A stretch of 38,084 bases of DNA from a virus (lineage: Duplodnaviria; Caudoviricetes), in the IMG/VR virus record IMGVR_UViG_3300017914_000816, positions 1-38,084 of that record. One strand, written 5' to 3'. Below, piece after piece: positions 2,867 through 23,075 of the stretch; within the stretch, counting starts at the first letter, position 1, and the number at the start of each line of letters is the position of its first letter. Below the pieces are notes generated by a model. It was not told the DNA's origin. It saw nothing but the letters and a program-made list of their open reading frames with translations, and ran no database searches. Position numbers and translations under genes: made by a program.

Positions 2867-3763
2867 TTAGGTCCCCCAGGCATTTCCGAATAGGCTGATG
2901 TGTAACCTTGGGGTAAATCGCCATCCTCTTTCCATACAGATGTTTGCGACTTCTTGGACGTTAAGATTGTATTCTTCACTTCTACCACCCAACGGCATAA
3001 GATAGACAGGACATTCGATACCTGCGGCTTTATATTCTTCAACAGCCTTCCCAGCCTCGTCAATATCAGTTCTATCAGCGACAACAAACTTAAGATACAT
3101 ATCACTATTAGATACACTGCTATAATTAACAGCCACATTAGGCTTGATAGCAGTATTCCAAGGCTCTCCGCTAACACTGAGTTTTGGGGAACAAGACCAA
3201 GTGACTTCAAACCTTGTTTGCTTGTCGAGATAGTTTCTAAAATCTTCATGTAAAAGTTGTGTAGTATTTGTTTCAAATGTGACATTTTTTAAGTCCTTCA
3301 TTTTAGGATGTTCAAACAATTCAATATAAAGCCTTTGCCATGCTAACAAAGGTTCACCACCTGTCATAATTAAGTGTATATCTTGTCCGTTATCCTGTGT
3401 CCACTTCCCATTAGGAGTTAGACTAATCAAATGTTCAACAACTTCATCTACACTTTTTAACATATTAAAATGTTTAAACTCAGGATAGATACTTGCATAT
3501 GTATCACAACCTGTGTGTATGATTGGCAAGTCGTTAAACTCTTTTGTATCTTTGTGTACATTCTTATCTAACAAGCCTTGCACTTCAGCATTATGAATTA
3601 CACCTTGTTTTTGTTTCTCGTCTCTCATTTGTTCACCACGTGGCAAACCAAAATTCATACAACGAAAGTTACAGCCAAAAGTTCTTAAAAATACACTAGG
3701 TACTCCTACATATTTACCTTCACCTTGTACACTGTAAAATGCTTCACTGTATCTTAGTTTCAT
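2867..3763 (-). CDS. queE: 7-carboxy-7-deazaguanine synthase (radical SAM)
   Basis: SEAFYSVQGEG, VFLRTFGCNFRC...GCDTY, MTGGEPLL, FETN, SPKL, RFTPRLH are QueE motifs; adjacent to queD. Confidence 0.92.
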   Translation of the reverse strand: MKLRYSEAFYSVQGEGKYVGVPSVFLRTFGCNFRCMNFGLPRGEQMRDEKQKQGVIHNAEVQGLLDKNVHKDTKEFNDLPIIHTGCDTYASIYPEFKHFNMLKSVDEVVEHLISLTPNGKWTQDNGQDIHLIMTGGEPLLAWQRLYIELFEHPKMKDLKNVTFETNTTQLLHEDFRNYLDKQTRFEVTWSCSPKLSVSGEPWNTAIKPNVAVNYSSVSNSDMYLKFVVADRTDIDEAGKAVEEYKAAGIECPVYLMPLGGRSEEYNLNVQEVANICMERGWRFTPRLHISLFGNAWGT

Positions 3764-3909
3764 TACACAAACCTATCTATAATTTCTGTTACAGTTACAA
3801 ATAATCCGTAACTAAAAATACTAAAAAGTACTATAAAGCCAAACACACTAGGATCGTCCCAGCCTGTATCATCTTTAAATCCCATACGTCTACAAAACTT
3901 GTCAAACAT
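3763..3909 (-). CDS. small single-pass membrane protein (48 aa)
   Basis: MFDKFCRRMGFKDDTGWDDPSVFGFIVLFSIFSYGLFVTVTEIIDRFV; TAATG-coupled to both queD and queE. Confidence 0.6.
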   Translation of the reverse strand: MFDKFCRRMGFKDDTGWDDPSVFGFIVLFSIFSYGLFVTVTEIIDRFV

Positions 3910-4415
3910 TATGCACCTACCTTAATAGTTTTCTTACCTTGCGGATATTCCATTTCATAAATTGCACTATTGGCACCATGCTCAAAACATTCAACACTCT
4001 TAACTCTTACTGTAGGATTAAGTAGAGTACCCTCTAACATACCTTGTTTAAGTATATGTGTTAATTGTAAGAATGCCATTTCAGCAAAACGTTCCGCACC
4101 AACACGTGGCACAATTCTAACATTTGCTAAACCTTTGGCGTGTAATTCTTCTAATGCTCCTCGTTGTGGATCATCTTCTGCAACCACAAGTGTATGATCA
4201 AACATTTCTTCTAACCAATTTTTAAACTTTTTAAGTCCACCAAAGTCCATTACCCAGTTACGTTCATCAAGATTATCACATTCAAAGATAACTTTAAAAC
4301 CTAAACTGTATCCATGTATTAATTTACAATGGCTATGTTCTGCTCGCCATTGTCTAAATGCACAACTCAAACCTCTGTCATTGTTGTACGTTTTTGTACT
4401 GTAAAATTTACCCAT
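3909..4415 (-). CDS. queD: 6-carboxy-5,6,7,8-tetrahydropterin synthase (QueD/PTPS family)
   Basis: HCKLIHGY, WVMDFGGLK, FDHT, GAERFA, VECFEHGANSA; operon with queE. Confidence 0.88.
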   Translation of the reverse strand: MGKFYSTKTYNNDRGLSCAFRQWRAEHSHCKLIHGYSLGFKVIFECDNLDERNWVMDFGGLKKFKNWLEEMFDHTLVVAEDDPQRGALEELHAKGLANVRIVPRVGAERFAEMAFLQLTHILKQGMLEGTLLNPTVRVKSVECFEHGANSAIYEMEYPQGKKTIKVGA

Positions 4416-4437
4416 TTATTGCTCCAATTAAATTACT

Positions 4438-4467
4438 ATTATACATTATATTTAGGCCCGTTGTCAA
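4438..4467 (-). promoter_or_regulatory. composite sigma70-like promoter with CCTAAATA box (queD-queE operon)
   Basis: minus strand TTGACA-acgggCCTAAATAtaatg(18)-TATAAT, then GGAG RBS. Confidence 0.8.
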
Positions 4468-4475
4468 GGTTAATG

Positions 4476-5453
4476 TTAATAATCCCATACATCACATACA
4501 TAACCTTTGCCATTTGTATCACCAAAATCACCATCTAATGTTTCGCCATTATAAAGGATTTCTGTAATAATGTTATCGCCATTGGGCATTTCTATTGCTT
4601 TGATATCTAGTTTAGATACATCAAATGGCTTTCCGTTTGTTTTGAGATACACATCATTAAACGTACCTTTTTCGATACTCATACCATAAAAGACGTAATT
4701 GTGACCATCTTCGTCTGCTAATTTATCTAAATCAAAGTAATCTTGGTCTACTTCTTTATTGTTTCGTTCTAGTAGTTTATCCAAGTCTTCATTTTCACAT
4801 ACAGTTTCAAGCCACTTACTACCCCATGATTCATTTTCAACTTCGTCAACTTCTATCCGACAAGATTCAAATGTAACACCATTCATATGTTCAATGTCAT
4901 CTTTTTCATACCACTGTTGATGAAACTCGTGCTCCATATCATATAAGAAGTCTGCTTCTTGTGGAATATCAACGTGCTTACGAAATTCTTCTGCATCTAC
5001 CATATAACTATCTAGGCTATCATACTCTGGATGGTCAAGTTCTATTTCACCTTCTTTAACTTTATTCCAAAACTCGTATGCTTCTTTTGTGATGCGACCG
5101 TATACAGATTCGCCACCATAACCCCACAGTCTAATACGATAATGTCGTACTGGCTTTTTAATTGTTTCAATAAGTTCTTCGTGTGCTTCTTCTGTAGTTT
5201 GTACATCAGTTACGTTAGACACTTTGAAACTACGCCAACCTTTTGCATTCAAATCATATACGCCAATATTTTCTAGTTGTTTAGCACTAGGTTCTTTTTT
5301 AGGCTTATCGCTTTTAGGCATATGCTCTTCTGGAATCAAACTAGGATCGAGTGTGCAAGTCATAATACGTTGTTCACCGTTTAGTTTGGTAAATGTAATA
5401 ACAGACTCCTTTGTACGAAGTCGTTCCATAAGTTGTTCTCTATTGTAATTCAT
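4476..5453 (-). CDS. WYL-like/SH3-fold (Sm-like) domain protein fused to acidic C-terminal domain
   Basis: VITFTKLNGEQRIMTCTL...VYDLNAKGWRSFKVSNV is typical of phage WYL_2-like proteins; further ~230 aa acidic domain. Confidence 0.7.
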   Translation of the reverse strand: MNYNREQLMERLRTKESVITFTKLNGEQRIMTCTLDPSLIPEEHMPKSDKPKKEPSAKQLENIGVYDLNAKGWRSFKVSNVTDVQTTEEAHEELIETIKKPVRHYRIRLWGYGGESVYGRITKEAYEFWNKVKEGEIELDHPEYDSLDSYMVDAEEFRKHVDIPQEADFLYDMEHEFHQQWYEKDDIEHMNGVTFESCRIEVDEVENESWGSKWLETVCENEDLDKLLERNNKEVDQDYFDLDKLADEDGHNYVFYGMSIEKGTFNDVYLKTNGKPFDVSKLDIKAIEMPNGDNIITEILYNGETLDGDFGDTNGKGYVCDVWDY

Positions 5454-5715
5454 TATCGTTTCCTGCTTCTAAATCCATACTCTGCCACTGGTTGTCGTCC
5501 CAATAATTGAATATATCAAAAAAACCTTGTTGCATAATTGAACTAGAATGCAAACTTTCGTTTGCCCATTTTTTAATCTCTGCGATTTGATCTTCGTTTA
5601 ACTCTGCAACATCTTCAACATTATAAAAAGAACACACTTGCTCTGATACTCTGTCGTAGATATCATTCTCTACTTGTTCTTCATGTTTGTGGACTCTATT
5701 CCATTCAAAAGCCAT
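5440..5715 (-). CDS. hypothetical protein
   Basis: ORF coupled to neighbours, GAGG RBS. Confidence 0.7.
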   Translation of the reverse strand: MAFEWNRVHKHEEQVENDIYDRVSEQVCSFYNVEDVAELNEDQIAEIKKWANESLHSSSIMQQGFFDIFNYWDDNQWQSMDLEAGNDNELQ

Positions 5716-5969
5716 TACTGCACCTCTTTTACTTCGTCTAATGCTTTATTCAAAATTTCAAATATCTTTGTCTGCATTTGGCTCTTTTGAGATTCAATTT
5801 TATTAGTTGAATTTAATTCAATTTGAGTTACAGCCAAAGGTTTCATAAATCCTTCTGGATTAACCATTTCAGTGTGTAAGTCCTTAACCATAACAGCCAA
5901 GTAAACTAACAAACCAAAAATAGATAGATTAATAACTACATTAATCCTACTTGCTATATCTTTTTTCAT
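5715..5969 (-). CDS. membrane-anchored hypothetical protein
   Basis: N-terminal TM helix VVINLSIFGLLVYLAVMV; GGAGG RBS. Confidence 0.7.
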   Translation of the reverse strand: MKKDIASRINVVINLSIFGLLVYLAVMVKDLHTEMVNPEGFMKPLAVTQIELNSTNKIESQKSQMQTKIFEILNKALDEVKEVQ

Positions 5970-6835
5970 TTGCTTTCCTCCGTGTTCATAAGTTTAAGTA
6001 ATTTCTTTTTACTAGATGCTTTGTAAATATTATCCATATAAATTATTTGTGTTGGAAATATACCTGCATCTTGTCCTTTTTCCCAATTAGTGTCTAAACC
6101 ATTATGTGATAAGAATCTAGTAATACCTGTTTGATATATTCCTGCTTTAATATAAAATCCTTTGTTTCCAGATCCTGATGTTTTACCTTTGTAATCAACT
6201 TTTAGTTCATCATTAACCCATATTTTATAAAACCCTTTGTCATCATGTTTTGACATAGTCACATTCATAATAATATGAGTCCACTTCCCTTTCATATCAT
6301 CAATGTTCATAAGTGTTGTTTTACGAAATGGATAAGGTATTTTAGGTCTTCCGTGAATTAAAAGATGTGCTATGATATTACCATTGCCGTCATCTTCCAT
6401 TTTAAAGGAAGGACCTTTACCTTTTTCATATAATTGAAAAAAGGAAGTTATAGTAGGATATATGGATTTAAAATCTTCTGGTATATAAATGCTATAAGAT
6501 ATCCATTGATCCGAGCCATACCATTTCTTTCCACTGAGCTCGCTTCTCATTCTGTCTTGCCCACCGCCATAGCCGTCGTACTCTGTACCACAATCTGTGT
6601 ATGTACCCCACTGATCATTACCACAATCAAATGGAATAGCAACAAATTTATAAGATTTTTTACCTAATACAGGTTCACCAGATCCTGCTTTTACAATAGA
6701 ATAAGATTTACCTATTTTGCCTGATGCAACACTGGGTTTTAATTCTTGATTGCTTAAATCATTATTACCAAAGGCATATGCATTAGAAATACCTAATGCA
6801 AATATTAACACAACTGTTGATAGTATCTTTTTCAT
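5966..6835 (-). CDS. secreted polysaccharide lyase-like (beta-jelly-roll, heparin lyase I-like) protein
   Basis: Sec signal MKKILSTVVLIFALGISNAYA; RSEL, WISYSIYIP, FFQ, GKWTHI, KIWVND, YIKAGIY, IYMDNI motifs. Confidence 0.7.
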   Translation of the reverse strand: MKKILSTVVLIFALGISNAYAFGNNDLSNQELKPSVASGKIGKSYSIVKAGSGEPVLGKKSYKFVAIPFDCGNDQWGTYTDCGTEYDGYGGGQDRMRSELSGKKWYGSDQWISYSIYIPEDFKSIYPTITSFFQLYEKGKGPSFKMEDDGNGNIIAHLLIHGRPKIPYPFRKTTLMNIDDMKGKWTHIIMNVTMSKHDDKGFYKIWVNDELKVDYKGKTSGSGNKGFYIKAGIYQTGITRFLSHNGLDTNWEKGQDAGIFPTQIIYMDNIYKASSKKKLLKLMNTEESK

Positions 6836-7065
6836 TATTGTACCTCCATATATGTTTCTGACAATTCACCTTTTTCAATTAACTCGTCTTGGATTTCCTG
6901 TGCAGTTAAATCTGCATAACCGTTTTCCTGTCTCCAGTCAATCTCGTCTTCTATGTGATGCATTCTCATAATATCTTTTGTACCAATGCCACCTAGGCCC
7001 AATTTAAGTTCGTTTAACTCTCCCCTTAAATCTTCTATCTCCATTTGTTCTACTTTTTTATACAT
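6835..7065 (-). CDS. hypothetical protein (start re-assigned to MYKKVEQ)
   Basis: AAGGAG RBS before ATG at 7065; upstream part of the track ORF overlaps the promoter. Confidence 0.7.
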   Translation of the reverse strand: MYKKVEQMEIEDLRGELNELKLGLGGIGTKDIMRMHHIEDEIDWRQENGYADLTAQEIQDELIEKGELSETYMEVQ

Positions 7066-7089
7066 ATTTCTCCTTCTTTTTATTGTATA

Positions 7090-7117
7090 ATAATAACACA
7101 ATATACAGATTTGTCAA
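7090..7117 (-). promoter_or_regulatory. sigma70-like (early-type) promoter
   Basis: TTGACA-N16-TATTAT with TG extended -10. Confidence 0.65.
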
Positions 7118-7681
7118 CTACTCCCAAGGGTAAACTAACCACACATCCTCTTCATTTTTGTTAACTTCATGGGCAGAATAGTGTACATTTCCAAAATTAC
7201 TACCCAAATTCTCTGTTAAAACTGCAAATCTTACATTTTCACCAAATATTTGATCCCATAAAGGACTATTAGGTAAGCAGGATTGTTTCCAATCGTTTAC
7301 TAGCCATTCGAACGTAGCACCAGTATCATTAATATCATCTATGATTAAAATGTTTTTCATTTTGTCTGGATCGTATTTGAAAGAACCCATTTCAACGTTG
7401 TACTCTTGTGAGTCATCATATCCATATGCATCTTCACTCATCCAAAGATTACTTTCTGGTCCACTATCGAGTCCACCAGTATCTCGCAATCTAATATCAA
7501 TTGTGTGCATTGGAATACCTGTTCTATTACTCATCATAATAGCAGGAACAAGTCCACCTCTTGTAATACCAACAATATAGTTTGGTCTCCAAGAATCGTT
7601 ATACATTTGAGTAATAAGACTAGTTGTCATTTTCTCAATGTCTTGCCAGTCATAAACGTGTTTCTTAACTGTCATCTTCAT
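7118..7681 (-). CDS. type I phosphoribosyltransferase (xanthine/guanine PRT-like)
   Basis: IVGITRGGLVPA, PRPP-binding ILIIDDINDTGATF, C-terminal WLVYPWE. Confidence 0.88.
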   Translation of the reverse strand: MKMTVKKHVYDWQDIEKMTTSLITQMYNDSWRPNYIVGITRGGLVPAIMMSNRTGIPMHTIDIRLRDTGGLDSGPESNLWMSEDAYGYDDSQEYNVEMGSFKYDPDKMKNILIIDDINDTGATFEWLVNDWKQSCLPNSPLWDQIFGENVRFAVLTENLGSNFGNVHYSAHEVNKNEEDVWLVYPWE

Positions 7682-8060
7682 CTTCCTCTTTTGGGTTACC
7701 TATTAATCCTTCTAAACTTTTATAATGGTCATAGGCTTCTTTTAGTGCCTCCCACTTCTCAAGTTTTTCTGGATCAGGAACAAGTATTGCTAACCTGTCC
7801 TCTATAGTTTTTAATCTTTCTTTTACGTGGTCTAAATCAGTTGGTTCTAATTTCCAATCATAATCTTCAATACCAGAACCTGTCATAGATAAATCCAATC
7901 CTGCAGGACTTGTATTATTATAACCAATATCTATTGAAGGACTTAAAGTAGTATCAAATGTATAATTGTAACCATTATGGTTGTTATAAATAGAATCGAC
8001 ATTTACTTGTATTACGTCATCACCAAAGTCAAATTCTTTTTGTTGCTTGTCTGTTGTCAT
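7665..8060 (-). CDS. hypothetical protein
   Basis: ORF coupled to neighbours; C-terminal coiled-coil. Confidence 0.7.
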   Translation of the reverse strand: MTTDKQQKEFDFGDDVIQVNVDSIYNNHNGYNYTFDTTLSPSIDIGYNNTSPAGLDLSMTGSGIEDYDWKLEPTDLDHVKERLKTIEDRLAILVPDPEKLEKWEALKEAYDHYKSLEGLIGNPKEEDEDDS

Positions 8061-8545: not shown

Positions 8546-8859
8546 TTTACTCTACTTCCTTCCCACATTTCTGATTGTTCATAACGTTCAACCCATTTTA
8601 AATGTGCAGGTCTCATGCCATGCTTATCAGTCATATTAGTTACTTGTTCGCCTTGCAATTCTAATAGTAATGCTTCGTGTGGGTGCATGGCTTTAATCAT
8701 ATTACCTTCAGCCCAACTATAAACACACCAATCATCTGGATAAGTTTCAAACTCTGGATCCAGTCGTTGATTAAGATAATGCTCCTTTAATTGCTGACGC
8801 ATCATCTCAATCTCTTTGTCTGAATACACTCTTTTATTTTTATTAGAATTTCCAGCCAA
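8530..8859 (-). CDS. hypothetical protein
   Basis: ORF overlapping both neighbours. Confidence 0.65.
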   Translation of the reverse strand: MAGNSNKNKRVYSDKEIEMMRQQLKEHYLNQRLDPEFETYPDDWCVYSWAEGNMIKAMHPHEALLLELQGEQVTNMTDKHGMRPAHLKWVERYEQSEMWEGSRVKCLKS

Positions 8860-11812
8860 TGCTTACTCCTGCATTTAGTTCTTCAAAGCCACCTGTTCTC
8901 TTTTCAGCGAACACTTTGAAATCTACATTGTCTTTATTATACTTGTAATAAGCAGTAAAGTCAATGTTTCTTTGCTCTGTTTTCATATTAATTGTAGTAT
9001 CTGTATTGATTACTTCACCATCTAGTGTTCTAGCAGTAGGTACACTATAAGTCATTTTAGCATCTTCAATAGTAACCGGTTGACTTACTACTGCACCAAA
9101 ACCGTTTTTCTCTGCACCTAGTGTCCAAGTACTACTAACAACACCACCAGCATCTTTCAACATACTCCAATCATTACCATATTTGTTTTTGGTATAACCT
9201 AAACCAAATTGACCAAACACTTCAACGTTTTCATATGTTGCACTGTAATTCAAGTTAGCATAAGTTGTGTATGAATTCTCAAGATTACCATATGCACCTG
9301 TTTGTGTATTTGCAAGATAACTTTTATCTTCTGCAAAGAATCCAGGTTGTACACTCCAGTTAGCATTAATAGGATATGCAAACCAGTTAATGTGTTGTTC
9401 ATTGTTTGTATAACCAACATAGTTGTTTGTCAAAGACAATGTGCTAGTAAAGTTGTTTGCCCTTGTATCAGTTTTAACAACGTTACTCATATCTACATAA
9501 TAATCTCTTTCAAAACTATCAAGTACCATTACACTAGAAAGTTCTGCCAATGCACCACTACTACCTGAAGCATAACCAGATACTGTTGAAATGTTACCAT
9601 CTGTTCTACCACTAGTAGGAATACCCGTTGCTCCTACTGGTTGTGTAGCAGTATCCATATCCAACAAACCTTGTCCGTGTACATTCTCATCATAACCTGC
9701 AATAGTTTTATCAGCAGTTTGTGTAAGAAGTTTTACAAGGTTCTTACCTTTCATATGAGGCCACATTTGATGTATTACTGCCAATGCACCTGTTACGGCG
9801 GGAGCCGCCATACTAGTACCTGACATATGCAAGTAACCATCACCGTTGTTGTCTGTACTGTAAACACTTGTACCTGGAGCAAGGATGTAAAAGTCTTTAA
9901 TCTCTGCCGCATCTTTACAAGTATCATTTACATAAGTTGTACATACTGTACCTGCTTTGTTACTGAATCCTGAAATCTTTTTGTTAGCAATATCCCAACT
10001 ACCAACAACAATCATTTGTCCATCTAGGATCAAATTACCATTGTCATCAGTTGCAGTTGCCATTTGGTTCATACCAGCACTGTAATCTGTACCTTGGTTA
10101 CCAGCGGCTTTAACAAGTACCATTTCATTACCAAGTGATTGTTTCCAATAACCTGCTTCTGACTTGGCACCATTATAACCGTTTTGTCCATAATACCAAT
10201 GTGTACTATACCAGTTACCATCAGCACCTTTTGTAAGACTTGCTTTGAATCCGTTGTCCAACCTTACTTCAGCACTAACGTTAATTGCAATAGCACCATG
10301 CTCTTTACCCCAAGCCGCGGCGTTCCTTGCCCTGCTAAAACTATATGAAGTACTATCAGTTACTTTAGCAATCATCATCTTAACATCAGGAGCAACACCA
10401 ATCATACCAGTGTCATTCATTTCTGCACCAGTAATACCAGCAACGTGTGTACCATGTCCATTGATATCACTTACATCTGTTGAACCATCTATAAAGTTTT
10501 TAGTACTGTGAATTTGGTTATCCAAATCTTTGTGGTTAATGTTTGTACCACTATCAGCAATAATTACAATACTACCTTTACCAGTCCAACCTCTGCTCCA
10601 TGCCGCATCAGCCTTAATAGCCGCCAACAAATTATCTGCTTCGTAGTTAGCAAGAGCCATAAACTCTTCTGTTCTGTAAAGGTTAGCATCTTTAATTGCA
10701 CCGTCTGTTGGTGTACCTAAATCGCTATTAGTGTACTCGACAGTTTTATAGTTAACAGTGTCATTATTACTATCATCATTACCATTATCTGCATTGTCAT
10801 TGTTTTCCTCTTCGTTATTTTCTTCTTCGTTATTTTCTTCTTCTACAGGTGTGTCGCCATTCTTTACATACTCATATGTAATTACAGGACTTACTGGAAC
10901 ACTAACTGTTTCAGTTTCTGTTGTTTCAACAACTTTAACTGTACCATCACTCATAGTAACGTGATAGATTACATTCCAAGTTTTTTCAACAGTTTCTGAA
11001 TAGTTAGTTTGTACTCTATACTTTGTACAAGAACCTGTATATGTAGAACCATCTGTAAGTGTTTGGTCAACACAATCAACTTCACCGTGTAATGATTTAC
11101 TTACACCAGTTGCTTCTTTACCAATAACTTTTTGATTAACAAGTTCGTTTTTAACTTTCTCCCTAGAAACTTCTGTTGCTTCTTCGGGTACTTCAGGAGT
11201 TTCTTCTTTTTCTTCTTCCTTGTCATCTACCGGAGGAGTTTCTTCTTTTTCTTCCTCTTCTTTTTCTTCTTCTTCAACAATAGGAACAATATCAGTCTTT
11301 ACATCATCAACTGACTTTTCACCTTTACCAACTGCAACGAAATCAATTTTGTCTTCGTTTTCAGCAAAGGCTTTTACATCTAAATATTCTGAATGTTCAT
11401 CATCAAACTTACCAGAGTCTACAATACCCTGCCAAAAGTCTTCTTTACCATCATAGAAAACTTTTTTGTAACCTTTAAGTTTGTCCCAAGCAGTATCAAG
11501 TGACATAGTCTGACCATCTACTGTAACTTGGTATTTTGCAAACTCACTTGTATCTAAGTCTGCATTAGCATTCATCCATTTAAAAACTTCAACTGCTTCA
11601 GTGGCAGTCATTTTACCATCAGCAGTAACATCTCTCAATACTGAAAGTTGTGCAAAGTTATCTGTAGCAAGTGTATCAAAACTTACTGTACCAATATTAA
11701 TTGGAGTTGGAGCACTAATATTGACGGAACCACCGCCACCTCCACCGCCACCACAGGCAGTTAGTGCCAGCATACTTACCATTGATGTAATTGCTAGTGT
11801 TTTATTTTTCAT
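8843..11812 (-). CDS. lipidated subtilisin-like S8 serine protease with probable C-terminal beta-barrel (autotransporter-like)
   Basis: Lipobox LTA-C followed by poly-Gly; catalytic IADSG, HGTHVAG, AAGN, GTSMAAP; beta-strand-rich C-terminus ending SIGWKF. Confidence 0.9.
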   Translation of the reverse strand: MKNKTLAITSMVSMLALTACGGGGGGGGSVNISAPTPINIGTVSFDTLATDNFAQLSVLRDVTADGKMTATEAVEVFKWMNANADLDTSEFAKYQVTVDGQTMSLDTAWDKLKGYKKVFYDGKEDFWQGIVDSGKFDDEHSEYLDVKAFAENEDKIDFVAVGKGEKSVDDVKTDIVPIVEEEEKEEEEKEETPPVDDKEEEKEETPEVPEEATEVSREKVKNELVNQKVIGKEATGVSKSLHGEVDCVDQTLTDGSTYTGSCTKYRVQTNYSETVEKTWNVIYHVTMSDGTVKVVETTETETVSVPVSPVITYEYVKNGDTPVEEENNEEENNEEENNDNADNGNDDSNNDTVNYKTVEYTNSDLGTPTDGAIKDANLYRTEEFMALANYEADNLLAAIKADAAWSRGWTGKGSIVIIADSGTNINHKDLDNQIHSTKNFIDGSTDVSDINGHGTHVAGITGAEMNDTGMIGVAPDVKMMIAKVTDSTSYSFSRARNAAAWGKEHGAIAINVSAEVRLDNGFKASLTKGADGNWYSTHWYYGQNGYNGAKSEAGYWKQSLGNEMVLVKAAGNQGTDYSAGMNQMATATDDNGNLILDGQMIVVGSWDIANKKISGFSNKAGTVCTTYVNDTCKDAAEIKDFYILAPGTSVYSTDNNGDGYLHMSGTSMAAPAVTGALAVIHQMWPHMKGKNLVKLLTQTADKTIAGYDENVHGQGLLDMDTATQPVGATGIPTSGRTDGNISTVSGYASGSSGALAELSSVMVLDSFERDYYVDMSNVVKTDTRANNFTSTLSLTNNYVGYTNNEQHINWFAYPINANWSVQPGFFAEDKSYLANTQTGAYGNLENSYTTYANLNYSATYENVEVFGQFGLGYTKNKYGNDWSMLKDAGGVVSSTWTLGAEKNGFGAVVSQPVTIEDAKMTYSVPTARTLDGEVINTDTTINMKTEQRNIDFTAYYKYNKDNVDFKVFAEKRTGGFEELNAGVSIGWKF
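10799..10843 (-). repeat. 3x15-bp in-frame tandem repeat (EEENN)3 in protease linker
   Basis: gaagaagaaaataac x2 plus a variant copy; an EEEKEETP duplication also lies near 11196-11258. Confidence 0.8.
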
Positions 11813-14275: not shown

Positions 14276-14281
14276 AAGTTC

Positions 14282-14968
14282 CTATCTAGGAGCGAACTCC
14301 TGTTGTAGTTTAATGTTATCCATAAACTCTTTTTTAGTACCCATGTCTTCAGTAAAGGCACCGCGAAGTACAGTTGTTTGTGTTAAACTACTGTGAGCAC
14401 CAATACCTCTGTTTTCACAACAACCATGTGTTGCTTGTAAGTAAACACCTACGTTAGAACTTCCTGTTGCTTTTTGTATTTCATCAGCAATAACATTATT
14501 AAGTTCTTCTTGTAGTGTTCCACGTCTTGCACACCATTGTGCAATCCTTGTATACTTGGATAGTCCAATTAGTTGCTCTGCCGCAATAATTCCAATATAT
14601 GCTACACCACTTACTGGTTGGTGGTGATGCGAACATACACTTTTAATTTCGCTTCTTACAACCAACATACCTTTATAACCATTTTCTACATGATTAGGAA
14701 ATGCAGTTGCATTGGGCATTGGATTATAACGACCAGACATGAGTTCGTTAATATACATCTTTGCAAGACGTCTACCTGTGTCCATACTATTAGGATCAGT
14801 ATGTCTATCAATAACTAATCCATCTAATACAGATTCAAATTTTGGCGTGAGTTCATCGATAAGTTTTTGCTTATCACCTTCTTCAAGGTATTGACTAATA
14901 TTATCTCCAGCCCAATAACGACCGTTACCGGACTCGATTCGCTTTTTAATTGTTTCGCTTATGCTCAT
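14282..14968 (-). CDS. folE: GTP cyclohydrolase I
   Basis: DTGRRLAKMY, SVCSHHHQP, IGLSKYTRI, LQEEL, ATHGCCENRG. Confidence 0.95.
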   Translation of the reverse strand: MSISETIKKRIESGNGRYWAGDNISQYLEEGDKQKLIDELTPKFESVLDGLVIDRHTDPNSMDTGRRLAKMYINELMSGRYNPMPNATAFPNHVENGYKGMLVVRSEIKSVCSHHHQPVSGVAYIGIIAAEQLIGLSKYTRIAQWCARRGTLQEELNNVIADEIQKATGSSNVGVYLQATHGCCENRGIGAHSSLTQTTVLRGAFTEDMGTKKEFMDNIKLQQEFAPR

Positions 14969-15007
14969 TAATTTCTCCTAGTTATACACGGCGAGACGTG
15001 TTTTTAT

Positions 15008-15237: not shown

Positions 15238-15246
15238 AACACTCCA

Positions 15247-15594
15247 TTACTTTTTATAGTTGCCTTTATCAGGGATAACGTGTCTTACACCACCCCTTGG
15301 GTCTTTCATATCGCCTTTACGTCGTGGTATTAAATGAACGTGTGGATACATAACAGTTTGCCCTGCTTCTGTACCTACATTTTGTCCAACGTTGTATGCA
15401 TCACAATATCCGTTTTGCACCCAATCATATCCCCAACCATAGGCGGCTTTGTAACACTTTTCTAACTTGTCCCAAGTTTCTTCTTTAGGAACAAATAGTA
15501 TGTGTCCTTCTGTAACAGGAAAGCCATCTTTAAATACTGTATAGTCTCTAGTATCTATAACAACGTCTTTCCAAGGTACTTCATTAAACTGCAT
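15247..15594 (-). CDS. HIT family nucleotide hydrolase
   Basis: DGFPVTEGHILFVPK, AGQTVMYPHVHLIPR; start re-assigned to MQFNEVPW. Confidence 0.88.
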   Translation of the reverse strand: MQFNEVPWKDVVIDTRDYTVFKDGFPVTEGHILFVPKEETWDKLEKCYKAAYGWGYDWVQNGYCDAYNVGQNVGTEAGQTVMYPHVHLIPRRKGDMKDPRGGVRHVIPDKGNYKK

Positions 15595-16678
15595 CAACAC
15601 TATCCTTAATTGCTTGATATAGTTTAGTACCATCAAAGAACTGTTCAAGTTGATGTTGCAACTCTACGTTCTTTAATTTGTATTCATCATAATTTTCTAC
15701 CATGTCTTTAATCTTATCAACTAGTTTCCATGGATTTTTCTTTAAGTCATCGATGCTAGTTGTAAGTTCATTTGCATATTTAAATTCATTTGTATACATT
15801 TCATAGTAACTTAATCTATCAGGAACTAAAGGTAATGCACCTACAAGACTACCTTCATATGCACCAATGCCTAATGTTTCTTGTAAGTTTGCACTAAACA
15901 CAATCTTAGACTTTGCAAGTAACTGATGATACTCGTCTTTAGATAATTGCTTTTCTTGTGCAAATATAAATTCATAATCTGGAAGTAATGTTGCCAAATG
16001 TTCAAATATTTCTGGTTGTTTCTCTGGTGCCATTCTATGTGGAAACAATACAATGTTTTCTTTGTCTTTACCTTTGTATGGAGCCAGTGTACTTTTTAAG
16101 TACTCCATAGGCCAACCAACTATTTGCATCTGACCACTTGCTAAATTCTTTTCAATATCTTCTACAGTATTTAGAAAACTTTGAGCAAAAAGGTTTACAT
16201 GGAATCTTGTTGCAAAGAAGTTATGGTCATAACATTCAAACATACTTGCTTCTGCATAACGTACCCAAGGTTTAGCACCAATTAGTCTACCCAAAAAGTC
16301 TGCTGGATCATAACTACCGGCGTGCCACATACCGCCAATTTTAATTTTGATATTTAATAGTTCAGCCATATACTTTAACTGAATTACTGTAGGGTTCCAT
16401 GCATCTGTATACAAGAAGTAATCACCGTCTTTAACTGTACCACTTGCTACAAGGTTTGCAATTTCCAACATCTGTTGACTTTTATAACTGTTGGTACCGG
16501 CAAAGTTTAAAAAGGCGCCTGGTGTTGTAGTTTGCGGAACCTCTCCGCCACTAATTATCTGTACATGGTAATCTTCCTCACCTAAGAAAGTTTGCATCTG
16601 TTCTGGCAAGAACTTTTTCCACTGTGCCGTATACCTTGTTTCAACAGGTTCTAAATCAACTATGTAAATTGTTTTCAT
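15584..16678 (-). CDS. GT-B fold glycosyltransferase (GT4-like)
   Basis: VLFPHRMAPEKQPE, SANLQETLGIGAYEG (E-x7-E), VPDRLSYYEM; start MKTIYIVD. Confidence 0.85.
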   Translation of the reverse strand: MKTIYIVDLEPVETRYTAQWKKFLPEQMQTFLGEEDYHVQIISGGEVPQTTTPGAFLNFAGTNSYKSQQMLEIANLVASGTVKDGDYFLYTDAWNPTVIQLKYMAELLNIKIKIGGMWHAGSYDPADFLGRLIGAKPWVRYAEASMFECYDHNFFATRFHVNLFAQSFLNTVEDIEKNLASGQMQIVGWPMEYLKSTLAPYKGKDKENIVLFPHRMAPEKQPEIFEHLATLLPDYEFIFAQEKQLSKDEYHQLLAKSKIVFSANLQETLGIGAYEGSLVGALPLVPDRLSYYEMYTNEFKYANELTTSIDDLKKNPWKLVDKIKDMVENYDEYKLKNVELQHQLEQFFDGTKLYQAIKDSVDAV

Positions 16679-17227: not shown

Positions 17228-17230
17228 TAT

Positions 17231-17431
17231 CTATTTTCGTTTACGCATAGCCTTCCCGTCCCGAATCCATTGATTATATGGACGTCGCTTGTTGGCAATG
17301 CTTTTCTGCATATGCCCCCAAGGACTGTTATTTCTGCCGATATCGGCTTCATTGAATGGGTATCCATTCTCAACACAAAATTCACGGTACTCATCAATCT
17401 GCTTAAAGATTGTTTCCATGTGCGGTTGCAT
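17231..17431 (-). CDS. hypothetical protein
   Basis: YREFCVENGYPFNEAD; GAGG upstream. Confidence 0.65.
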   Translation of the reverse strand: MQPHMETIFKQIDEYREFCVENGYPFNEADIGRNNSPWGHMQKSIANKRRPYNQWIRDGKAMRKRK

Positions 17432-17455
17432 TTTTTAAGTATCCTCTTCATATAC

Positions 17456-17878
17456 CTATTGGTTCATATAAGCGTCTAGTGTTTTTTTGAACTTACCTGC
17501 GTGAGATTTTTCTGCTTTTGCAAGTGTTTCAAACCAGTCTGCAATTTCATCAAAGCCTTCTTCTCTGGCTGTTCTTGCCATACCAGGATACATATCTGTA
17601 TACTCGTGTGTCTCACCATGAATAGCACTTTTTAAATTTGCTTCTGTTTCCCCCATTGGTTCACCTGTTGCAGGATCTCCAACTTCTTCTAAATACTCTA
17701 AATGTCCATGTGCGTGTCCAGTTTCACCTTCAGCAGTTGATCTAAACACACCAGCAACATCTGGAGCACCTTCTATATCTGCCTTTTGAGCAAAGTATAG
17801 ATATCTTCTATTTGCTTGGCTTTCGCCTGCAAATGCATCTTTTAAGTTTTGTGCAGTTTTACTGTCTTTTAGTTCCAT
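17456..17878 (-). CDS. short-chain rubrerythrin (di-iron domain only)
   Basis: [36 protein letters not shown]; no C-terminal rubredoxin CxxC; start MELKDSK. Confidence 0.92.
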
Positions 17879-17894
17879 AAAGTTACCTTTATTG

Positions 17895-18356
17895 TTATTG
17901 TTTTTTGTAATCGTATTTGATAAACGATCCATTTTCCCCGTCTTCACTTACTTCAATCCAAACAGAACGCTCAGGGTAACGTTCTTGGATTTTACCAAAC
18001 AAGTCATCACTCATCATTTCGCAAGACTTGTAATCTAACTCTAATGTCTTCTCCTCATAAAGTTTTTCTAACCAACGTTTAAATTGAATAAATTCAATAT
18101 CTCTGTCATTATGAAATACATCAATCCAAACTTTGAAATGGAAAATATGTCTATGCGGGTATCCTAAAAACGATACGTCATACTCATCGCCTGTTGCTAG
18201 TTTAGGATCATCTAATGCCGCTGGGTATTTGTGAATACCTTCTTTACGGAATGTTACCCAAATCATTTTACTTGCAGATTCTTTTTGTACAGTCTGTGCC
18301 TGCTTTACAGCCTGTGTTCTCATATCATCTAACATATCGTTATAGTATTGTCCCAT
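17895..18356 (-). CDS. QueD-like T-fold protein, DpdL-like (candidate CDG decarboxylase)
   Basis: LGYPHRHIF (LxxxHRHxF), DRDIEF, SCEM, IEVSEDGENG; genomic context with folE/queD/queE/TGT. Confidence 0.7.
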   Translation of the reverse strand: MGQYYNDMLDDMRTQAVKQAQTVQKESASKMIWVTFRKEGIHKYPAALDDPKLATGDEYDVSFLGYPHRHIFHFKVWIDVFHNDRDIEFIQFKRWLEKLYEEKTLELDYKSCEMMSDDLFGKIQERYPERSVWIEVSEDGENGSFIKYDYKKQ

Positions 18357-18359
18357 TGT

Positions 18360-18578
18360 TTACTCTTTTGCAATTTTATTACATTCTTGTTCGTTGGCTT
18401 TTAGACCTACGTTCTTATCATATAGCCATACATAACTATATGTCATTTGACCGTCATTAGTTTCAGCACACTTTTTACCAAAACTCAATGCAGGTGTTTT
18501 AATATGACCACTACAAGCAGTCATAAGCAATCCTACGGTTGCAATTAGTATTACATTTTTCATTTTATTATCCTTCAT
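18360..18578 (-). CDS. small lipoprotein
   Basis: Lipobox LMTA-C; two further Cys. Confidence 0.75.
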   Translation of the reverse strand: MKDNKMKNVILIATVGLLMTACSGHIKTPALSFGKKCAETNDGQMTYSYVWLYDKNVGLKANEQECNKIAKE

Positions 18579-18586
18579 ATACGTTT

Positions 18587-18615
18587 ATTATACATCTTAT
18601 TTAGGCAAATGTCAA
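18587..18615 (-). promoter_or_regulatory. composite sigma70-like promoter with CCTAAATA box (dpdL-like/GT operon)
   Basis: TTGACA-tttgCCTAAATAagatg(17)-TATAAT. Confidence 0.82.
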
Positions 18616-18776
18616 TGCTTTTGTGCATGAAGTTTATCTTTTATACGGAGTTTTTCTTTCTTAAGATCCCTAAGATCCTCTTTAGTACTCCAATCTCTTA
18701 CGTTATCTCTAACTTTTTCTGCTTCTCGAACTTCTCTTTTAAGTTCTTTATGCTTTTGATGTAGATCGTCTTTCAT
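18612..18776 (-). CDS. DUF465/YdcH-like small coiled-coil protein (54 aa)
   Basis: LHQKHKELK...LKKEKLRIKDKL; GGAG RBS; not in track. Confidence 0.6.
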   Translation of the reverse strand: MKDDLHQKHKELKREVREAEKVRDNVRDWSTKEDLRDLKKEKLRIKDKLHAQKH

Positions 18777-18979
18777 TTTACACTCCTTTTATTAGATTCG
18801 ATATTGTTTACAAAAACTCTAACAAGTCTTGAAACATCCACTTCCTCTTTTTTAAGTGTCTTAGGGTTAGTAAAAATTACTTTACTTTTGTTTGCTTCTA
18901 GTTGTATACCTATATTAGAAGCAACCACAATAGCGTCATCTGTATGCTTACGCCAATCGTGTGAACTATATGTTGTCAT
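18773..18979 (-). CDS. hypothetical protein
   Basis: GGAGG RBS. Confidence 0.7.
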   Translation of the reverse strand: MTTYSSHDWRKHTDDAIVVASNIGIQLEANKSKVIFTNPKTLKKEEVDVSRLVRVFVNNIESNKRSVK

Positions 18980-18987
18980 TCTTCCTC

Positions 18988-19542
18988 CTATTCAATAAAT
19001 GTATCACCCACGTATTTGTCCCAATCGGAAAAGTGTTCTTTGTTAATACAATTATCTAAAGGAACACACCAAACACCTGGATTCGTTTTATTAAAATCTA
19101 CATCATCAAATTTAACAGTTGCATTATGACTATTCAAATTCCATTGTTTCCAATAGCCAAGTTTTAAACTCATCATTGGAATAAATCTTCTATATTCAAT
19201 CCAAGCACATTCTAAAACGCCATCTCCATAAAGCATTAAATCAAAATCAAGTGTTACCCAAAAACCTTCATCAAGTAGCCCACAAATGTATTTGTCCCAG
19301 TCGTCCCAATCTCGTTCAGTGTCAGGTCTAAATGTTGTGCCTGTGCCTAAATAGATATGTTTAATACCATTGCCGTGTGCATGGTCTATTGTTCTTTTTA
19401 AATCTTGTATACCACATACAAACAAAGTAAGTTTACCAAACATAGGAGTTTTTTCAACTTCTCTGTTAATAAAGAACTTTGCTTTATCAGTTGTAATGAA
19501 CTTACCATCTTCCGTTTTATATGTTCTCATCATCTGTTTCAT
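18988..19542 (-). CDS. phage hypothetical protein in the TGT operon
   Basis: EVEKTP..GKLTLFV, HIYLG, VTLDFD, KFDDVDF..TNPGVWC; enzyme-like alpha/beta pattern. Confidence 0.75.
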   Translation of the reverse strand: MKQMMRTYKTEDGKFITTDKAKFFINREVEKTPMFGKLTLFVCGIQDLKRTIDHAHGNGIKHIYLGTGTTFRPDTERDWDDWDKYICGLLDEGFWVTLDFDLMLYGDGVLECAWIEYRRFIPMMSLKLGYWKQWNLNSHNATVKFDDVDFNKTNPGVWCVPLDNCINKEHFSDWDKYVGDTFIE

Positions 19543-19850
19543 TATGCTTGTCCTTTAAATGCAGATTGGTTATGCGAATCTTCTTCTTGTTGTTGTTTAA
19601 GTTCTTCTTCGAAGCCTTCTTGCAATAAATCAGATACTGATTTTTCGTCCATTTGAGCTTGTTTTGAATATTCTTCTAGTGCTTGTTCTTCATCAAGCAT
19701 ACGTTGTTTAAATCTTTCTTCTTGTGGAGTGTTTAACCAGTCTTCCCATTTAATAATTAATTCGTTTATCTTACCCATTGGATAATTTTTATGGACAAGT
19801 TCTGCTCTATACTCTTTTAATGCTTCAATTATTTGTCTTACTTCGTCCAC
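19542..19850 (-). CDS. hypothetical protein
   Basis: Coupled ORF, acidic helical. Confidence 0.65.
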   Translation of the reverse strand: MDEVRQIIEALKEYRAELVHKNYPMGKINELIIKWEDWLNTPQEERFKQRMLDEEQALEEYSKQAQMDEKSVSDLLQEGFEEELKQQQEEDSHNQSAFKGQA

Positions 19851-20767
19851 TTAATGTAACCTCTTGAGTAACCTTCTGGTCTATTGTTACCATCATCGAA
19901 TGCTTGTTTCCATTCTGTTTCTCTGTCATAACCTTTTGTCCAAAAGTTATCAATGTTTAATATACCAGACTGTATCATGTTTGTTGCATCTTTCATACAA
20001 AAATGAAAGTTTGGATTTCTAGGACTTGGAAAGAACATAGTTGCATTCTTCCAAAGTAGTTTACCAAATGTAGTTGTAACACCTTTTTTCTCTGCCGCCA
20101 GTACAACAATAGGATTATCTTCTAGTAAATATCCAAAATCAAATACAAGCGAGTTATCATCTTTTAAATCAATAACTACATCATACTTTTGTTTTGGTTC
20201 TGTAATTAATCTATCTTCCCAAAACTTTCTGTTGCTAGAACCTAATACATCTACAAACTCATCTAGTTTTAAACTTTTAAGTTTTGTATAAACTACAGTT
20301 GCTAAAAAGCCACTACCAATAATTAGTATCTTAGACTTTTCTCTTTTCATTAGTTCATCTAATATTGTCATTACAATATTAATACCACAAGCCACAGGCT
20401 CTACAATGTATTTAGGATCTGCTTCAGGCACTACTACATATTCTGTAGGCTTTGCATTATAATAATCTGCATATGCAGGCTCGCCTCTAGTAGCAACAAT
20501 GTCTCCAACGTTTGCATCTGTTACTTCTTTACCTACTTTAACTACTTCACCTAGTCCTTCATGTCCTTGCATTTCTAAAGGCAATGGACCAAAGTTACCA
20601 TTCATCATATCAATATCACTACGACATACACCGGTCATTAAAGCCTTAACTTCAATTTCATCTTCTTTAATGTCAGGCTTGTTCCACTCTGTTTCAACAA
20701 AGTTACCTGTACCAGTTGTGTGTAATAGTTTTACTAACATAGTTCTTCCATTTGTTCGTGTATCCAC
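19838..20767 (-). CDS. Zn-dependent medium-chain dehydrogenase (sorbitol/threonine DH-like)
   Basis: GVCRSD, GHEGLG, VEPVAC, IIGSGFLA; lacks 4-Cys structural Zn lobe; start probably MLVKLL. Confidence 0.85.
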   Translation of the reverse strand: MDTRTNGRTMLVKLLHTTGTGNFVETEWNKPDIKEDEIEVKALMTGVCRSDIDMMNGNFGPLPLEMQGHEGLGEVVKVGKEVTDANVGDIVATRGEPAYADYYNAKPTEYVVVPEADPKYIVEPVACGINIVMTILDELMKREKSKILIIGSGFLATVVYTKLKSLKLDEFVDVLGSSNRKFWEDRLITEPKQKYDVVIDLKDDNSLVFDFGYLLEDNPIVVLAAEKKGVTTTFGKLLWKNATMFFPSPRNPNFHFCMKDATNMIQSGILNIDNFWTKGYDRETEWKQAFDDGNNRPEGYSRGYIKWTK

Positions 20768-21612
20768 ATATCTTTTCTAAATTGATCTTCCCAATATGTA
20801 TCATTATGCAGGTTTTTGAGCCCTGTGTCAATCATTCTTTTATAGGCGTCTTCTGGGCATAATCCAAGGTTTACACGTTCTACGTAACCTAATATCTCAA
20901 AGTTTATACCAATATCATCATATAAATCAGTACGCCAATTAGCGAGTAAGTTGTATTCACAGAACCTAGTTTTGTAAGTCATACCCGCTTCATCATCTAC
21001 ATCATATATACCATTTGGATCAACTACACCATAGTCTGTATCAAGCAAGTCTTTTAGTTTCCAGTTTTGTTTTGCTTTCCCATTAGACATTTGTACATCT
21101 TCATAGTCTGGATTGAATACTTGATACAGACTTAACAAGTGTGGAAGTAGGTCTCTGCTTACACCACCATATGCTAATTCTTTAGTTGTAAACCATGTAC
21201 CAGGATTAGGTACTCTGTTTTTATTACACCAGTTAATATCAACTACACGACTTGTTCTTGCCATGTTAGTCATTTCATCTATATTGTGTCTAAACTGATT
21301 ATTCTTAACCATACTAATACGACATTCAGGAAAGTCATAATATAAATCAGCCCAGGCTTTAGCAGTTGCTAACCCAGGCTTTTCTATATAAAGTGTATGA
21401 CACCATGGTGCTATAAACCTTGCTATATCTTCATGTGTTTCATTTGGTGTACAGATATGTACAGTGTCATACATATCAATTGGCACTTCTTCTATGTCTC
21501 GATAATTAGCAGGTCTTTTAGTATCAACTGTTACAACTTCGTGACCCATTTCGTTTAGAATCTTAAAGTACAGTTGCCCAATACCCATTCCTACTATAAG
21601 ACTTTTCATCAT
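20734..21612 (-). CDS. Gfo/Idh/MocA family NAD(P) oxidoreductase
   Basis: IVGMGIG, ICTPNETH, YIEKPG, GGVSRDLLPH. Confidence 0.88.
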   Translation of the reverse strand: MMKSLIVGMGIGQLYFKILNEMGHEVVTVDTKRPANYRDIEEVPIDMYDTVHICTPNETHEDIARFIAPWCHTLYIEKPGLATAKAWADLYYDFPECRISMVKNNQFRHNIDEMTNMARTSRVVDINWCNKNRVPNPGTWFTTKELAYGGVSRDLLPHLLSLYQVFNPDYEDVQMSNGKAKQNWKLKDLLDTDYGVVDPNGIYDVDDEAGMTYKTRFCEYNLLANWRTDLYDDIGINFEILGYVERVNLGLCPEDAYKRMIDTGLKNLHNDTYWEDQFRKDMWIHEQMEELC

Positions 21613-23075
21613 GCCTCCGAGAATAAACTGTTAAATTGACTAGATGCATTTACAGTTTTCTTACCAACATACCCTCTTGTTCCAACTACTTTCATCCATA
21701 GTTTTGTGTGTTGGTCAATAAGTTCCAATGCTTTGTCTTTATCATCTAATTCAAACACTCTTGCAATAACATCTTTAACTTCTGTTTTATCAAAGTTATC
21801 ATCACATAGCATATTAGGATACTTACCTTTGTCATACTCTCTATTTGCTTCTTGTACACTGTTGATATGTGTATAAACATTATGGTTCATCATAAGTGCA
21901 TATGCAAAACTATCCCAACTAGTTTTAGTGCTTGTACCCATTCTGTTTACATCTGTTGGACTATAGATACATACATCATTTACTTTTAGTCCTTTTGTAA
22001 TAGGTGTAGGCATCCAAACAGTATCAGACTTCTTAAAGAACTCTGTAGCCATATCATCATAAGGTCTAGTATCAGAACTTAATGCTTTATCATCTGGAGC
22101 AACCGACATTAAATAACTCCATTTTTCATTTTGTTCTGTTCTATGCCCTGTGTACATTTGACCATTTGCAGTACATAAGAAAGGACTTGCACAATCAAAA
22201 GTAACTGTAAAGTTTTCATTATGATGTTTTCTAATTGCACGTTGTATATCTGTAAGTACTAGTGCCCATTCAAGTTTACTTGTACCTAAGAAGTGCATAA
22301 AGTCTTGTTTACCTTTTTCAAGTAAACCATCATAACGTAATTCAACAACACGTTTAAGAGCAAGGTGTAGGTCGCACATATTTTGTCCACCCATTGCCCA
22401 ACCATTAAAGTGTGCATCAGGATAAACTTTGGGATCACTAAACTGTTTCATTTGTGAATACCAATCGTCTGCTTGTGCAAAGTTCTCACCTTGTAGTACG
22501 TTTAAGAACTTACAATTACCATTACGATTTTTAATAAAGTATTCGTTGTTTTGTTGTGTGCCTTCTACTGCTTCTTGATAAGAACTAATCTTACTTGCAC
22601 TTGCACCTTCTGGACTTCTACTTACCCATGCAGGAATATCAAGTATCATTCCATAATCCATAAATGCGTCCATCCATTTTAGAACGCCATCACGTTTCTT
22701 TTGTGCTTGTGGACAGCCACTGCCTTTACGCCAGTCGCCTTCCCATTTACCCTTACCAATCTGGAATCCTCCACTGTCGCCTAACAGCCAACTAGTGTTA
22801 CGATTTCTATCTCTATACATATCTTCTCGATACATATCTTTCTGCAAATCTAAACTGGCGTGTCCAGCCGAGTGTAAACTCCACTGATACTGCCATAGAC
22901 CTTCAGGCGCCAACCAGTTAATACTTTCTACACCATGTTGTAGGAAACTAGGAACACGATTATAATCAATATACTCGTGTCGTCTTTGTCTACCTACAAA
23001 CAATGCATAGAATGTACTGAGTGCTGGCAAAAAGATTGCATAGTCTTTTTGTTGTTCTGTTAGGTTAGTATGCAT
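21609..23075 (-). CDS. TGT-family deazaguanine transglycosylase (DpdA-like)
   Basis: LGDSGGFQ, MILDIP, NVLQG, GWAMGG, MHFLG, TFDCAS are TGT motifs; between replisome genes and pathway genes. Confidence 0.85.
   Translation of the reverse strand: MHTNLTEQQKDYAIFLPALSTFYALFVGRQRRHEYIDYNRVPSFLQHGVESINWLAPEGLWQYQWSLHSAGHASLDLQKDMYREDMYRDRNRNTSWLLGDSGGFQIGKGKWEGDWRKGSGCPQAQKKRDGVLKWMDAFMDYGMILDIPAWVSRSPEGASASKISSYQEAVEGTQQNNEYFIKNRNGNCKFLNVLQGENFAQADDWYSQMKQFSDPKVYPDAHFNGWAMGGQNMCDLHLALKRVVELRYDGLLEKGKQDFMHFLGTSKLEWALVLTDIQRAIRKHHNENFTVTFDCASPFLCTANGQMYTGHRTEQNEKWSYLMSVAPDDKALSSDTRPYDDMATEFFKKSDTVWMPTPITKGLKVNDVCIYSPTDVNRMGTSTKTSWDSFAYALMMNHNVYTHINSVQEANREYDKGKYPNMLCDDNFDKTEVKDVIARVFELDDKDKALELIDQHTKLWMKVVGTRGYVGKKTVNASSQFNSLFSEA

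Follow-up and report, generated by a model that had tools for sequence, protein, structure and literature searches.

The virus record IMGVR_UViG_3300017914_000816 (IMG/VR; Caudoviricetes), which we analysed in its entirety (38,084 bases, a fragment estimated to be 11% complete, hereafter the window), carries the genes of a 7-deazaguanine DNA-modification system in which a GT4-like glycosyltransferase (GT) accompanies the transglycosylase DpdA and the T-fold protein DpdL. Gene context and conserved motifs lead us, with modest confidence, to propose that this system places a glycosylated 7-deazaguanine (DG) in phage DNA; that the sugar additionally undergoes redox tailoring at C3 in the lineage of the window is doubtful. 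The GT that accompanies DpdA and DpdL is the new part, as it is absent from the accessible text of the study that proposed the function of DpdL (Cui et al., NAR 2023, PMC10516641). The initial annotation of this DNA had named folE, queD, queE, a gene of the tRNA-guanine transglycosylase (TGT) family, a second T-fold gene, a GT, a HIT hydrolase, a Gfo/Idh/MocA oxidoreductase (Gfo) and a Zn-type medium-chain dehydrogenase/reductase (MDR); all were found, and the genes of the module lie on the minus strand throughout. Profile searches of Pfam, PHROGs and NCBIfam identified folE, queD, queE, HIT, MDR and Gfo, and the nearest cultured relatives of the module genes are the PA5oct-like Pseudomonas jumbo phages.

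A glycosyltransferase linked to DpdA and DpdL

The GT (15584–16678; 364 residues from a probable ATG at 16678) itself has no Pfam match, and PF00534 matches 15 of 37 members of its family; its Atlas clusters bear the label glycosyltransferase family 1 (score 1.00), and its PDB matches are weak and to GT4 enzymes. Residues H119, R215, K220 and E267-x7-E275 are invariant across the family alignment; we take these to be the acceptor-side His, the donor-binding Arg/Lys and the E-x7-E motif that are hallmarks of GT4. We assign the protein to the GT4-like retaining GT-B enzymes and predict that it transfers a sugar.

To follow the gene, 126 IMG/VR loci anchored on DpdA were pooled (47 plus a further 79 from the best 80 of 597) and reduced to 79 non-redundant loci, of which 52, those with 5 kb or more of downstream sequence, were kept. 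The GT, dpdL and the gene of a 184-residue protein stand behind DpdA in all 52, so that the co-occurrence of the GT and the 184-residue gene with the TGT gene, proposed as a check on the system, is borne out; folE is present in 46, and QueC, QueF or Gat-QueC in none. Other neighbours vary (HIT in 28, a phosphoribosyltransferase in 33, a cupin in 21 and rubrerythrin in one), and on these counts the four were rejected as core parts; the HIT hydrolase (15247–15594; PF01230), initially taken for a member of the system, is thus an accessory. A second set was anchored on DpdL (best 80 of 596 loci, 61 of them extending 3 kb or more downstream), and here the GT is present in 61 of 61. With the GT of the window as tblastn query, 15 of these loci had seemed to lack the gene, an artefact in that all 15 carry a divergent type of GT (type B, below).

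DpdL, DpdA and the QueC-free route

The second T-fold gene of the window (17895–18356) encodes DpdL: its product is 57% identical to ACP17 gp125 and 33% identical to CGPG_00067 of Cellulophaga phage phiST, and L64-xxx-H68-R-H70-x-F72 fits the published LxxxHRHxF signature. DpdL, defined by this signature, was proposed to decarboxylate 7-carboxy-7-deazaguanine (CDG) to DG; in phiST, deoxyguanosine (dG) is fully (100%) replaced by 2′-deoxy-7-deazaguanosine (dDG), and dDG is the base predicted from DpdL gene content (PMC10516641). In the supplement table of that study, PA5oct is listed with DpdA3, FolE, QueD, QueE and DpdL and without QueC, and ACP17 is in the table too (PMC10516641). The window has FolE (GTP cyclohydrolase I; 14282–14968; PF01227, E 2e-37), QueD (6-carboxytetrahydropterin (CPH4) synthase; 3909–4415; PF01242, PHROG 2389), the radical-SAM CDG synthase QueE (2867–3763; PHROG 2076, E 1e-51; CxxxCxxC present), DpdL with LxxxHRHxF and a DpdA with the catalytic Asp. 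With DpdL as the second T-fold gene and a TGT gene orthologous to the DpdA listed for PA5oct, the QueC-independent CDG/DG route proposed for this DNA is, judged from its genes, the published DpdL route (PMC10516641): the genes are present as claimed, but the route is not new. The deazaguanine system of PA5oct was also noted by Iyer 2021, where no GT is linked to it in the accessible text.

The TGT gene (21609–23075; 488 residues), which directly follows the clamp and PolB genes, has by itself no Pfam or PDB match. In its family alignment the motifs D100-SGGFQ, D146, Q195-G, H261 and D294 are conserved, and D100, D146 and D294, presumably the catalytic residues of a TGT, are invariant. The protein is 34% identical to PA5oct gp168, the DpdA3 of the Cui 2023 list (accession paired by gene order). 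Since its profile scores better against the ACP17-type DpdA2 (hhalign probability 76, E 2e-5) than against the short phiST-type DpdA3 (probability 28, E 7e-4), it is best seen as a separate long DpdA subfamily that appears nearer to DpdA2 than to DpdA3. The family is abundant, with an estimated 4,600 or so matching stretches stored in IMG/VR.

Unrelated phages and bacterial islands

The GT occurs with DpdA or DpdL in about seven unrelated contexts. Among cultured phages, the gene order is folE-184aa-dpdA2-GT-dpdL-queE in ACP17, GT-TGT-dpdL-queE in BUDD, dpdL followed by GT-TGT and then queE in BCSR5, and folE-GT2-dpdA2-dpdL-GT in BUCT-ZZ01; the DpdA of these four phages belongs to the other subfamily, DpdA2, and is homologous to the tested enzymes of nt-1 and VH7D. 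In bacteria, 21 genome loci were collected and 9 excluded as phage-like contigs or too short; in all 12 that were kept, the GT and the DpdA subfamily of the window share a locus, and dpdL is present in 7. Several of these are alphaproteobacterial islands flanked by an integrase gene, in which yhhQ-GT-dpdA is accompanied by a second GT4, and it is possible that they represent a bacterial version of the system. The islands (L123:9498-15477; L121, L124-L126, L128, L129) also hold, beside yhhQ-GT-dpdA, a protein of 540-600 residues and nearby defence-like genes, and the second GT4 in several of them resembles the second GT4 of BUCT-ZZ01.

These contexts bear on the possibility that the GT and the dehydrogenases have nothing to do with guanine, and instead modify a hydroxylated pyrimidine, virion proteins or the host surface while merely sharing a replication block. 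The block of the window is indeed a lineage-wide PolB-clamp-exonuclease region, and phage GTs are known to act on hydroxymethylcytosine (hmC) or hydroxycytosine and on virions (PMC12619734, accessible text). However, the GT adjoins DpdA in unrelated phages of other gene order and in islands without replication genes, and a thymidylate-synthase-family gene was not found in the large IMG/VR records G001, G006 and G007 or in ACP17, although PA5oct has one; we regard this explanation as improbable.

Among 50,697 phage records, DpdL matches 28 and the GT 23, with 18 records matched by both. Ten DpdL records have no GT match; of the six whose flanks were read, five carry a short gene resembling DpdA3 (that of phiST, two called by phmmer and two by eye; the GT profile was run on two of the flanks), and the sixth, Bakedbeans, shows no such gene in its flank. 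Neither Vibrio phage 2.275.O, with the DpdA subfamily of the window, nor pf16, with a long DpdA2, has a tblastn match to the GT or DpdL, and both have QueC/QueF. In the DpdL phages with a short DpdA3 (L135:6477-8460, L136:6683-8572, L137:4575-7543, L110:5430-7592), kinase-like and dUTPase/MazG-like genes adjoin DpdA3, and the kinase-like neighbour in D479 is annotated as a deoxynucleoside monophosphate kinase. As these genes are kept beside the short DpdA3, they hint that complete dG replacement in such phages may proceed via the deoxynucleoside triphosphate pool and not by post-replicative exchange. Xanthomonas phage PhiXhv-12 (L107:6885-10971) carries, in a single run, genes for Gat-QueC, a PIG-L deacetylase, a distant GT and Gfo, which may serve to make a glycosylated archaeosine-type base; no DpdA was recognised in this flank.

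Sugar-tailoring genes

The GT falls into two subtypes, A (that of the window) and B, which are 22% identical to one another; the type-B GT is 66% identical to that of BUCT-ZZ01. A GalE-like gene lies directly behind the type-B GT in 17 of 17 DpdL-anchored loci, and behind the type-A GT in none of 44 DpdL-anchored and none of 52 DpdA-anchored loci; two of the GalE-like genes were scanned, and both score above the TIGR01179 cut-off. In BCSR5, a PIG-L-like deacetylase gene lies two genes upstream of the GT. Because the GT subtype tracks its sugar enzyme, with GalE beside type B only, these sequences suggest that the GT is tied to nucleoside-diphosphate-sugar chemistry and that different lineages use different sugars. 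A DegT-like open reading frame (ORF) after GalE was dropped as subtype evidence, as it occurs in type-A loci too.

In the window, the stop codon of the TGT gene overlaps the start of Gfo (GCATGATG), as expected from the translational coupling proposed for the two genes, and the 3′ end of Gfo (20734–21612; PF01408 and PF22725, both weak) overlaps the probable start, near 20740, of the MDR gene (19838–20767; PF08240). The Gfo protein is a predicted glycoside 3-dehydrogenase: its GxGxG, EKP and D153-xxx-H157 motifs are conserved, and the best PDB match of its profile is DgpA (E 1e-11, distant; next best 1e-6), with levoglucosan and glucuronide-3-dehydrogenases lower among the matches. DgpA oxidises C3 of glycosides. 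In the MDR, C48, H69-E70 and E123 are invariant in 20 aligned rows, and the sequence contains no structural-Zn cysteine loop. This oxidase/reductase pair suggests a possible C3 epimerisation of the sugar.

The pair is an optional part of the module, as it is present in 20 of 52 DpdA-anchored loci (MDR always with Gfo) and, in PA5oct, is degenerate and displaced: there, a Gfo-MDR-184aa triad (gp123-121, L150:7001-9278) lies 25 kb away from DpdA. Thus the expected co-occurrence of dehydrogenases and TGT holds in part of the loci only, and the redox tailoring claimed initially is plausible for the window, where the motifs are intact, but not general. In the DpdL-anchored set the pair occurs in 4 of 44 type-A vs. 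0 of 17 type-B loci, numbers too small for significance alone; a quick tree requires 6 changes (at least 4) to account for its distribution, as would fit repeated loss or gain. Among cultured phages, it is confined to 11 PA5oct-like records.

The variety of sugar genes is relevant to a further explanation, namely that the DNA contains plain dDG (or dCDG) and that the substrate of the GT is a small molecule, free deazaguanine or other, that is thereby stored, detoxified or activated. GT4 enzymes often use small soluble acceptors, Gfo and MDR are typical soluble sugar enzymes, and the neighbour of the GT in islands is yhhQ, a free-base transporter; moreover, phiST has 100% dDG with DpdL (PMC10516641). 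Yet the pairing of GT subtypes with GalE, PIG-L, Gfo/MDR or a second GT4 is hard to explain unless the sugar is exposed and diversifying, and phiST-like DpdL phages do without a GT; we therefore consider this explanation unlikely.

QueC and the 184-residue protein

QueC was not found in the 38,084 bases of the window, and the whole records of PA5oct, Phosso and ACP17 have no QueC match. The outcome of a search through larger genomes, which had been put forward as a check, is nevertheless mixed: among 10 large IMG/VR records, the two of the nearest lineage (G001 and G002) have a QueC-like PP-loop ORF above the Pfam cut-off (195 residues, ~50 kb from the module). As the G001 ORF lacks YG, VP(Y/F)RN and DxxxxF, stretches found in three phage QueCs, this putative QueC-like protein is probably not the QueC of the pathway. 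The ORF (L138:4988-5575) has a C-terminal cysteine cluster and lies amid oxygenase- and methyltransferase-like genes. Two near-complete records, G006 and G007, are QueC-negative, G007 with a weak match only (E 7e-4), and both have a type-B GT; the weak QueC match of BUDD reads like what we take to be NAD synthetase. Hosts may be a source of preQ0.

The conserved 184-residue protein (18988–19542), present in ACP17 and PA5oct as well as behind DpdA in IMG/VR loci, is modelled as a partial β/α barrel, with a mean predicted local distance difference test score (pLDDT) of 35 from sequence alone and 91 with a 56-row alignment. Three QueE chains are among the top 20 VIA rows (Z 5.3-5.8; 5tgs with Z 5.8, root-mean-square deviation 3.3 and 127 residues aligned; 4njg with Z 5.7), tied with STAS and Mre11 folds. 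The CxxxCxxC Fe-S motif is absent from the sequence and the family consensus, hhalign to QueE is negative, Foldseek against the PDB gives no match at E<=0.001, the ACP17 homologue is the only match in BFVD, and Atlas matches are all under 0.9. On its model, the protein is possibly a QueE-like partial barrel lacking the Fe-S motif. Small ORFs of BUDD and BCSR5 are not supported as members of this family (E 0.3 and 0.015).

These two subjects bear on whether the sugar sits not on DG but on another 7-substituted base: the carboxyl of CDG, a 7-hydroxymethyl made via the 184-residue protein, or preQ0/preQ1 of the host. Such a base would supply the O- or N-nucleophile for a GT4; the 184-residue gene is core in phage loci and is not in the phiST flank, islands have yhhQ and sometimes no dpdL nearby, and G001 has its QueC-like ORF. 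In addition, DpdA2 enzymes are promiscuous and insert CDG, preQ0 and preQ1 (PMC10516641). Against this, the GT is tied to dpdL in all 61 DpdL-anchored loci and was not found in the DpdA phages of QueC/QueF type that were checked, the QueC stretches named above are missing from the G001 ORF, and the resemblance of the 184-residue protein to QueE does not exceed the Z values given; we judge this alternative quite unlikely.

Proposed pathway

For the glycosylated deazaguanine that we favour, the steps would be as follows. GTP would be converted to CDG by FolE, QueD and QueE, an established chemistry for which the genes are present here; CDG would be decarboxylated to DG by DpdL, as proposed by Cui 2023 and never reconstituted; DpdA, whose catalytic motifs are intact, would exchange guanine in DNA for DG; and the GT would move a hexose onto the base, with host UDP-glucose or UDP-N-acetylglucosamine as probable donor for type A, to go by gene context. 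In the lineage of the window, Gfo might then oxidise the C3 hydroxyl of the sugar and MDR reduce it again, with the C3 epimer as the simplest outcome; this is the weakest step and a doubtful one. The predicted role of the product is to protect the genome against nucleases of the host. As a guess, the sugar would be attached at C7, which DpdL vacates, or to a substituent on C7, with N2 as the alternative: the near-exclusive link between GT and DpdL points to the DpdL product as acceptor and hence to C7, and the chemistry of GT4 enzymes favours an acceptor with an N or O nucleophile. The DNA of PA5oct is refractory to five G-containing restriction enzymes, from which a modified, unnamed G was inferred (PMC12191111, accessible text). 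A prediction of a DpdA-GT complex scored 0.00 and gives no verdict, and a search for TET/JBP returned zero matches, controls included, and carries no information.

A wider reading is possible, but we hold it tentatively and rate it below an even prospect: a widespread phage and island family would make the first sugar-bearing purine in DNA, possibly a C7 C-glycoside formed by a retaining GT4, with the sugar diversified like an antigen. The variants would be a galacto sugar (type-B GT with GalE), a deacetylated amino sugar (PIG-L), a second sugar (second GT4) and, in the window, a C3-oxidised or epimerised sugar (Gfo and MDR).

Several observations weigh against a glycosylated deazaguanine. DG has no hydroxyl, the usual acceptors of retaining GT4 enzymes are O or N atoms, and C-glycosylation at C7 would be unusual. 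One syntenic phage group accounts for most of the loci counted, so that 52 of 52 and 61 of 61 are not independent events. phiST has DpdL without a GT and carries plain dDG; five Xanthomonas/Erwinia records have a distant GT without DpdL; in PhiXhv-12, the one of these that was read, the GT relative (20-25%) sits with Gat-QueC, PIG-L and Gfo, with no DpdL match; and in 5 of the 12 bacterial loci dpdL does not fall in the flanks retrieved. In G001, the large record closest to the window (DpdA 86% identical), the QueC-like ORF is ~50 kb off. Gfo and MDR of PA5oct lack the NAD/Zn catalytic motifs, and despite this loss both are still full length in 11 PA5oct-related records. DpdL with DpdA, from phiST and from ACP17, gave no product in E. 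coli (PMC10516641). The sugar decoration claimed initially is well supported by genomic context, as the GT accompanies DpdA and DpdL in every context tested, but not by chemistry, with no chemical detection of a glycosylated deazaguanine in the literature searched.

Comparison with known systems

The closest published system is the DpdL/DpdA3 system of phiST, which like the window has FolE, QueD, QueE, DpdL with LxxxHRHxF and a DpdA, and no QueC (PMC10516641). It differs in its DpdA, of 259 vs. 488 residues, and the window adds the GT4, the 184-residue protein and the optional Gfo and MDR. By word search, "glycosyltransferase", "glucosyl" and "sugar" are absent from the main text of PMC10516641, and "glycosyltransferase" from its supplement. 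The bases mdPreQ1 (made by DpdM) and fdPreQ1 (DpdN) are alike in that a second enzyme decorates a deazaguanine placed by DpdA, but they need QueC and QueF and receive a methyl or formyl group and no sugar (PMC10516641).

The glucosylated hmC of phage T4 is a glycosylated pyrimidine in DNA. Further examples are the TET/GT clusters (Pyle et al., accessible text) and glycosylated 5-hydroxycytosine (PMC13326640), the accessible text of the latter containing neither "deazaguan-" nor "purine" in a word search. Like the system of the window, these have a GT-B enzyme and variable sugar-tailoring genes that are predicted to decorate a pre-modified base after replication, whereas the acceptor in the window would be an analogue of a purine that lacks a hydroxyl. 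The sugar-bearing bases of phage DNA known to us or found in our searches are pyrimidines, and no glycosylated deazaguanine was found in the literature searched, where subscription papers fell outside the scope and a prior mention is possible. If true, a glycosylated deazaguanine would add a new class to the natural DNA bases and a new reaction to those of GT4 enzymes; the dDG predicted in the literature for PA5oct and ACP17 would need correcting; and the lack of product from ACP17 DpdA and DpdL in E. coli might be explained. PA5oct, Paride, ACP17, BUDD and BUCT-ZZ01 are cultured and span different predicted sugars: PA5oct and Paride have a type-A GT with degenerate Gfo and MDR, ACP17 a type-A GT and no such pair, BUCT-ZZ01 a type-B GT and a second GT, and BUDD a PIG-L-like neighbour.

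Other genes of the window

The T-fold gene, GT and HIT hydrolase had been described as one operon. They share an orientation, and the HIT start overlaps the GT end by 11 nt, but dpdL and the GT are not adjacent: rubrerythrin (17456-17877) and three small ORFs separate them. A peroxiredoxin is encoded at 27040-27594. Elsewhere in the window are a 989-residue subtilase (8843-11812) that has an acidic linker, an N-terminus like that of a lipoprotein and a C-terminus that is probably a β-barrel, a polysaccharide lyase bearing a signal peptide (5966-6835), and a twitch-domain radical SAM protein (29335-30468) that scores above the NF033640 cut-off.

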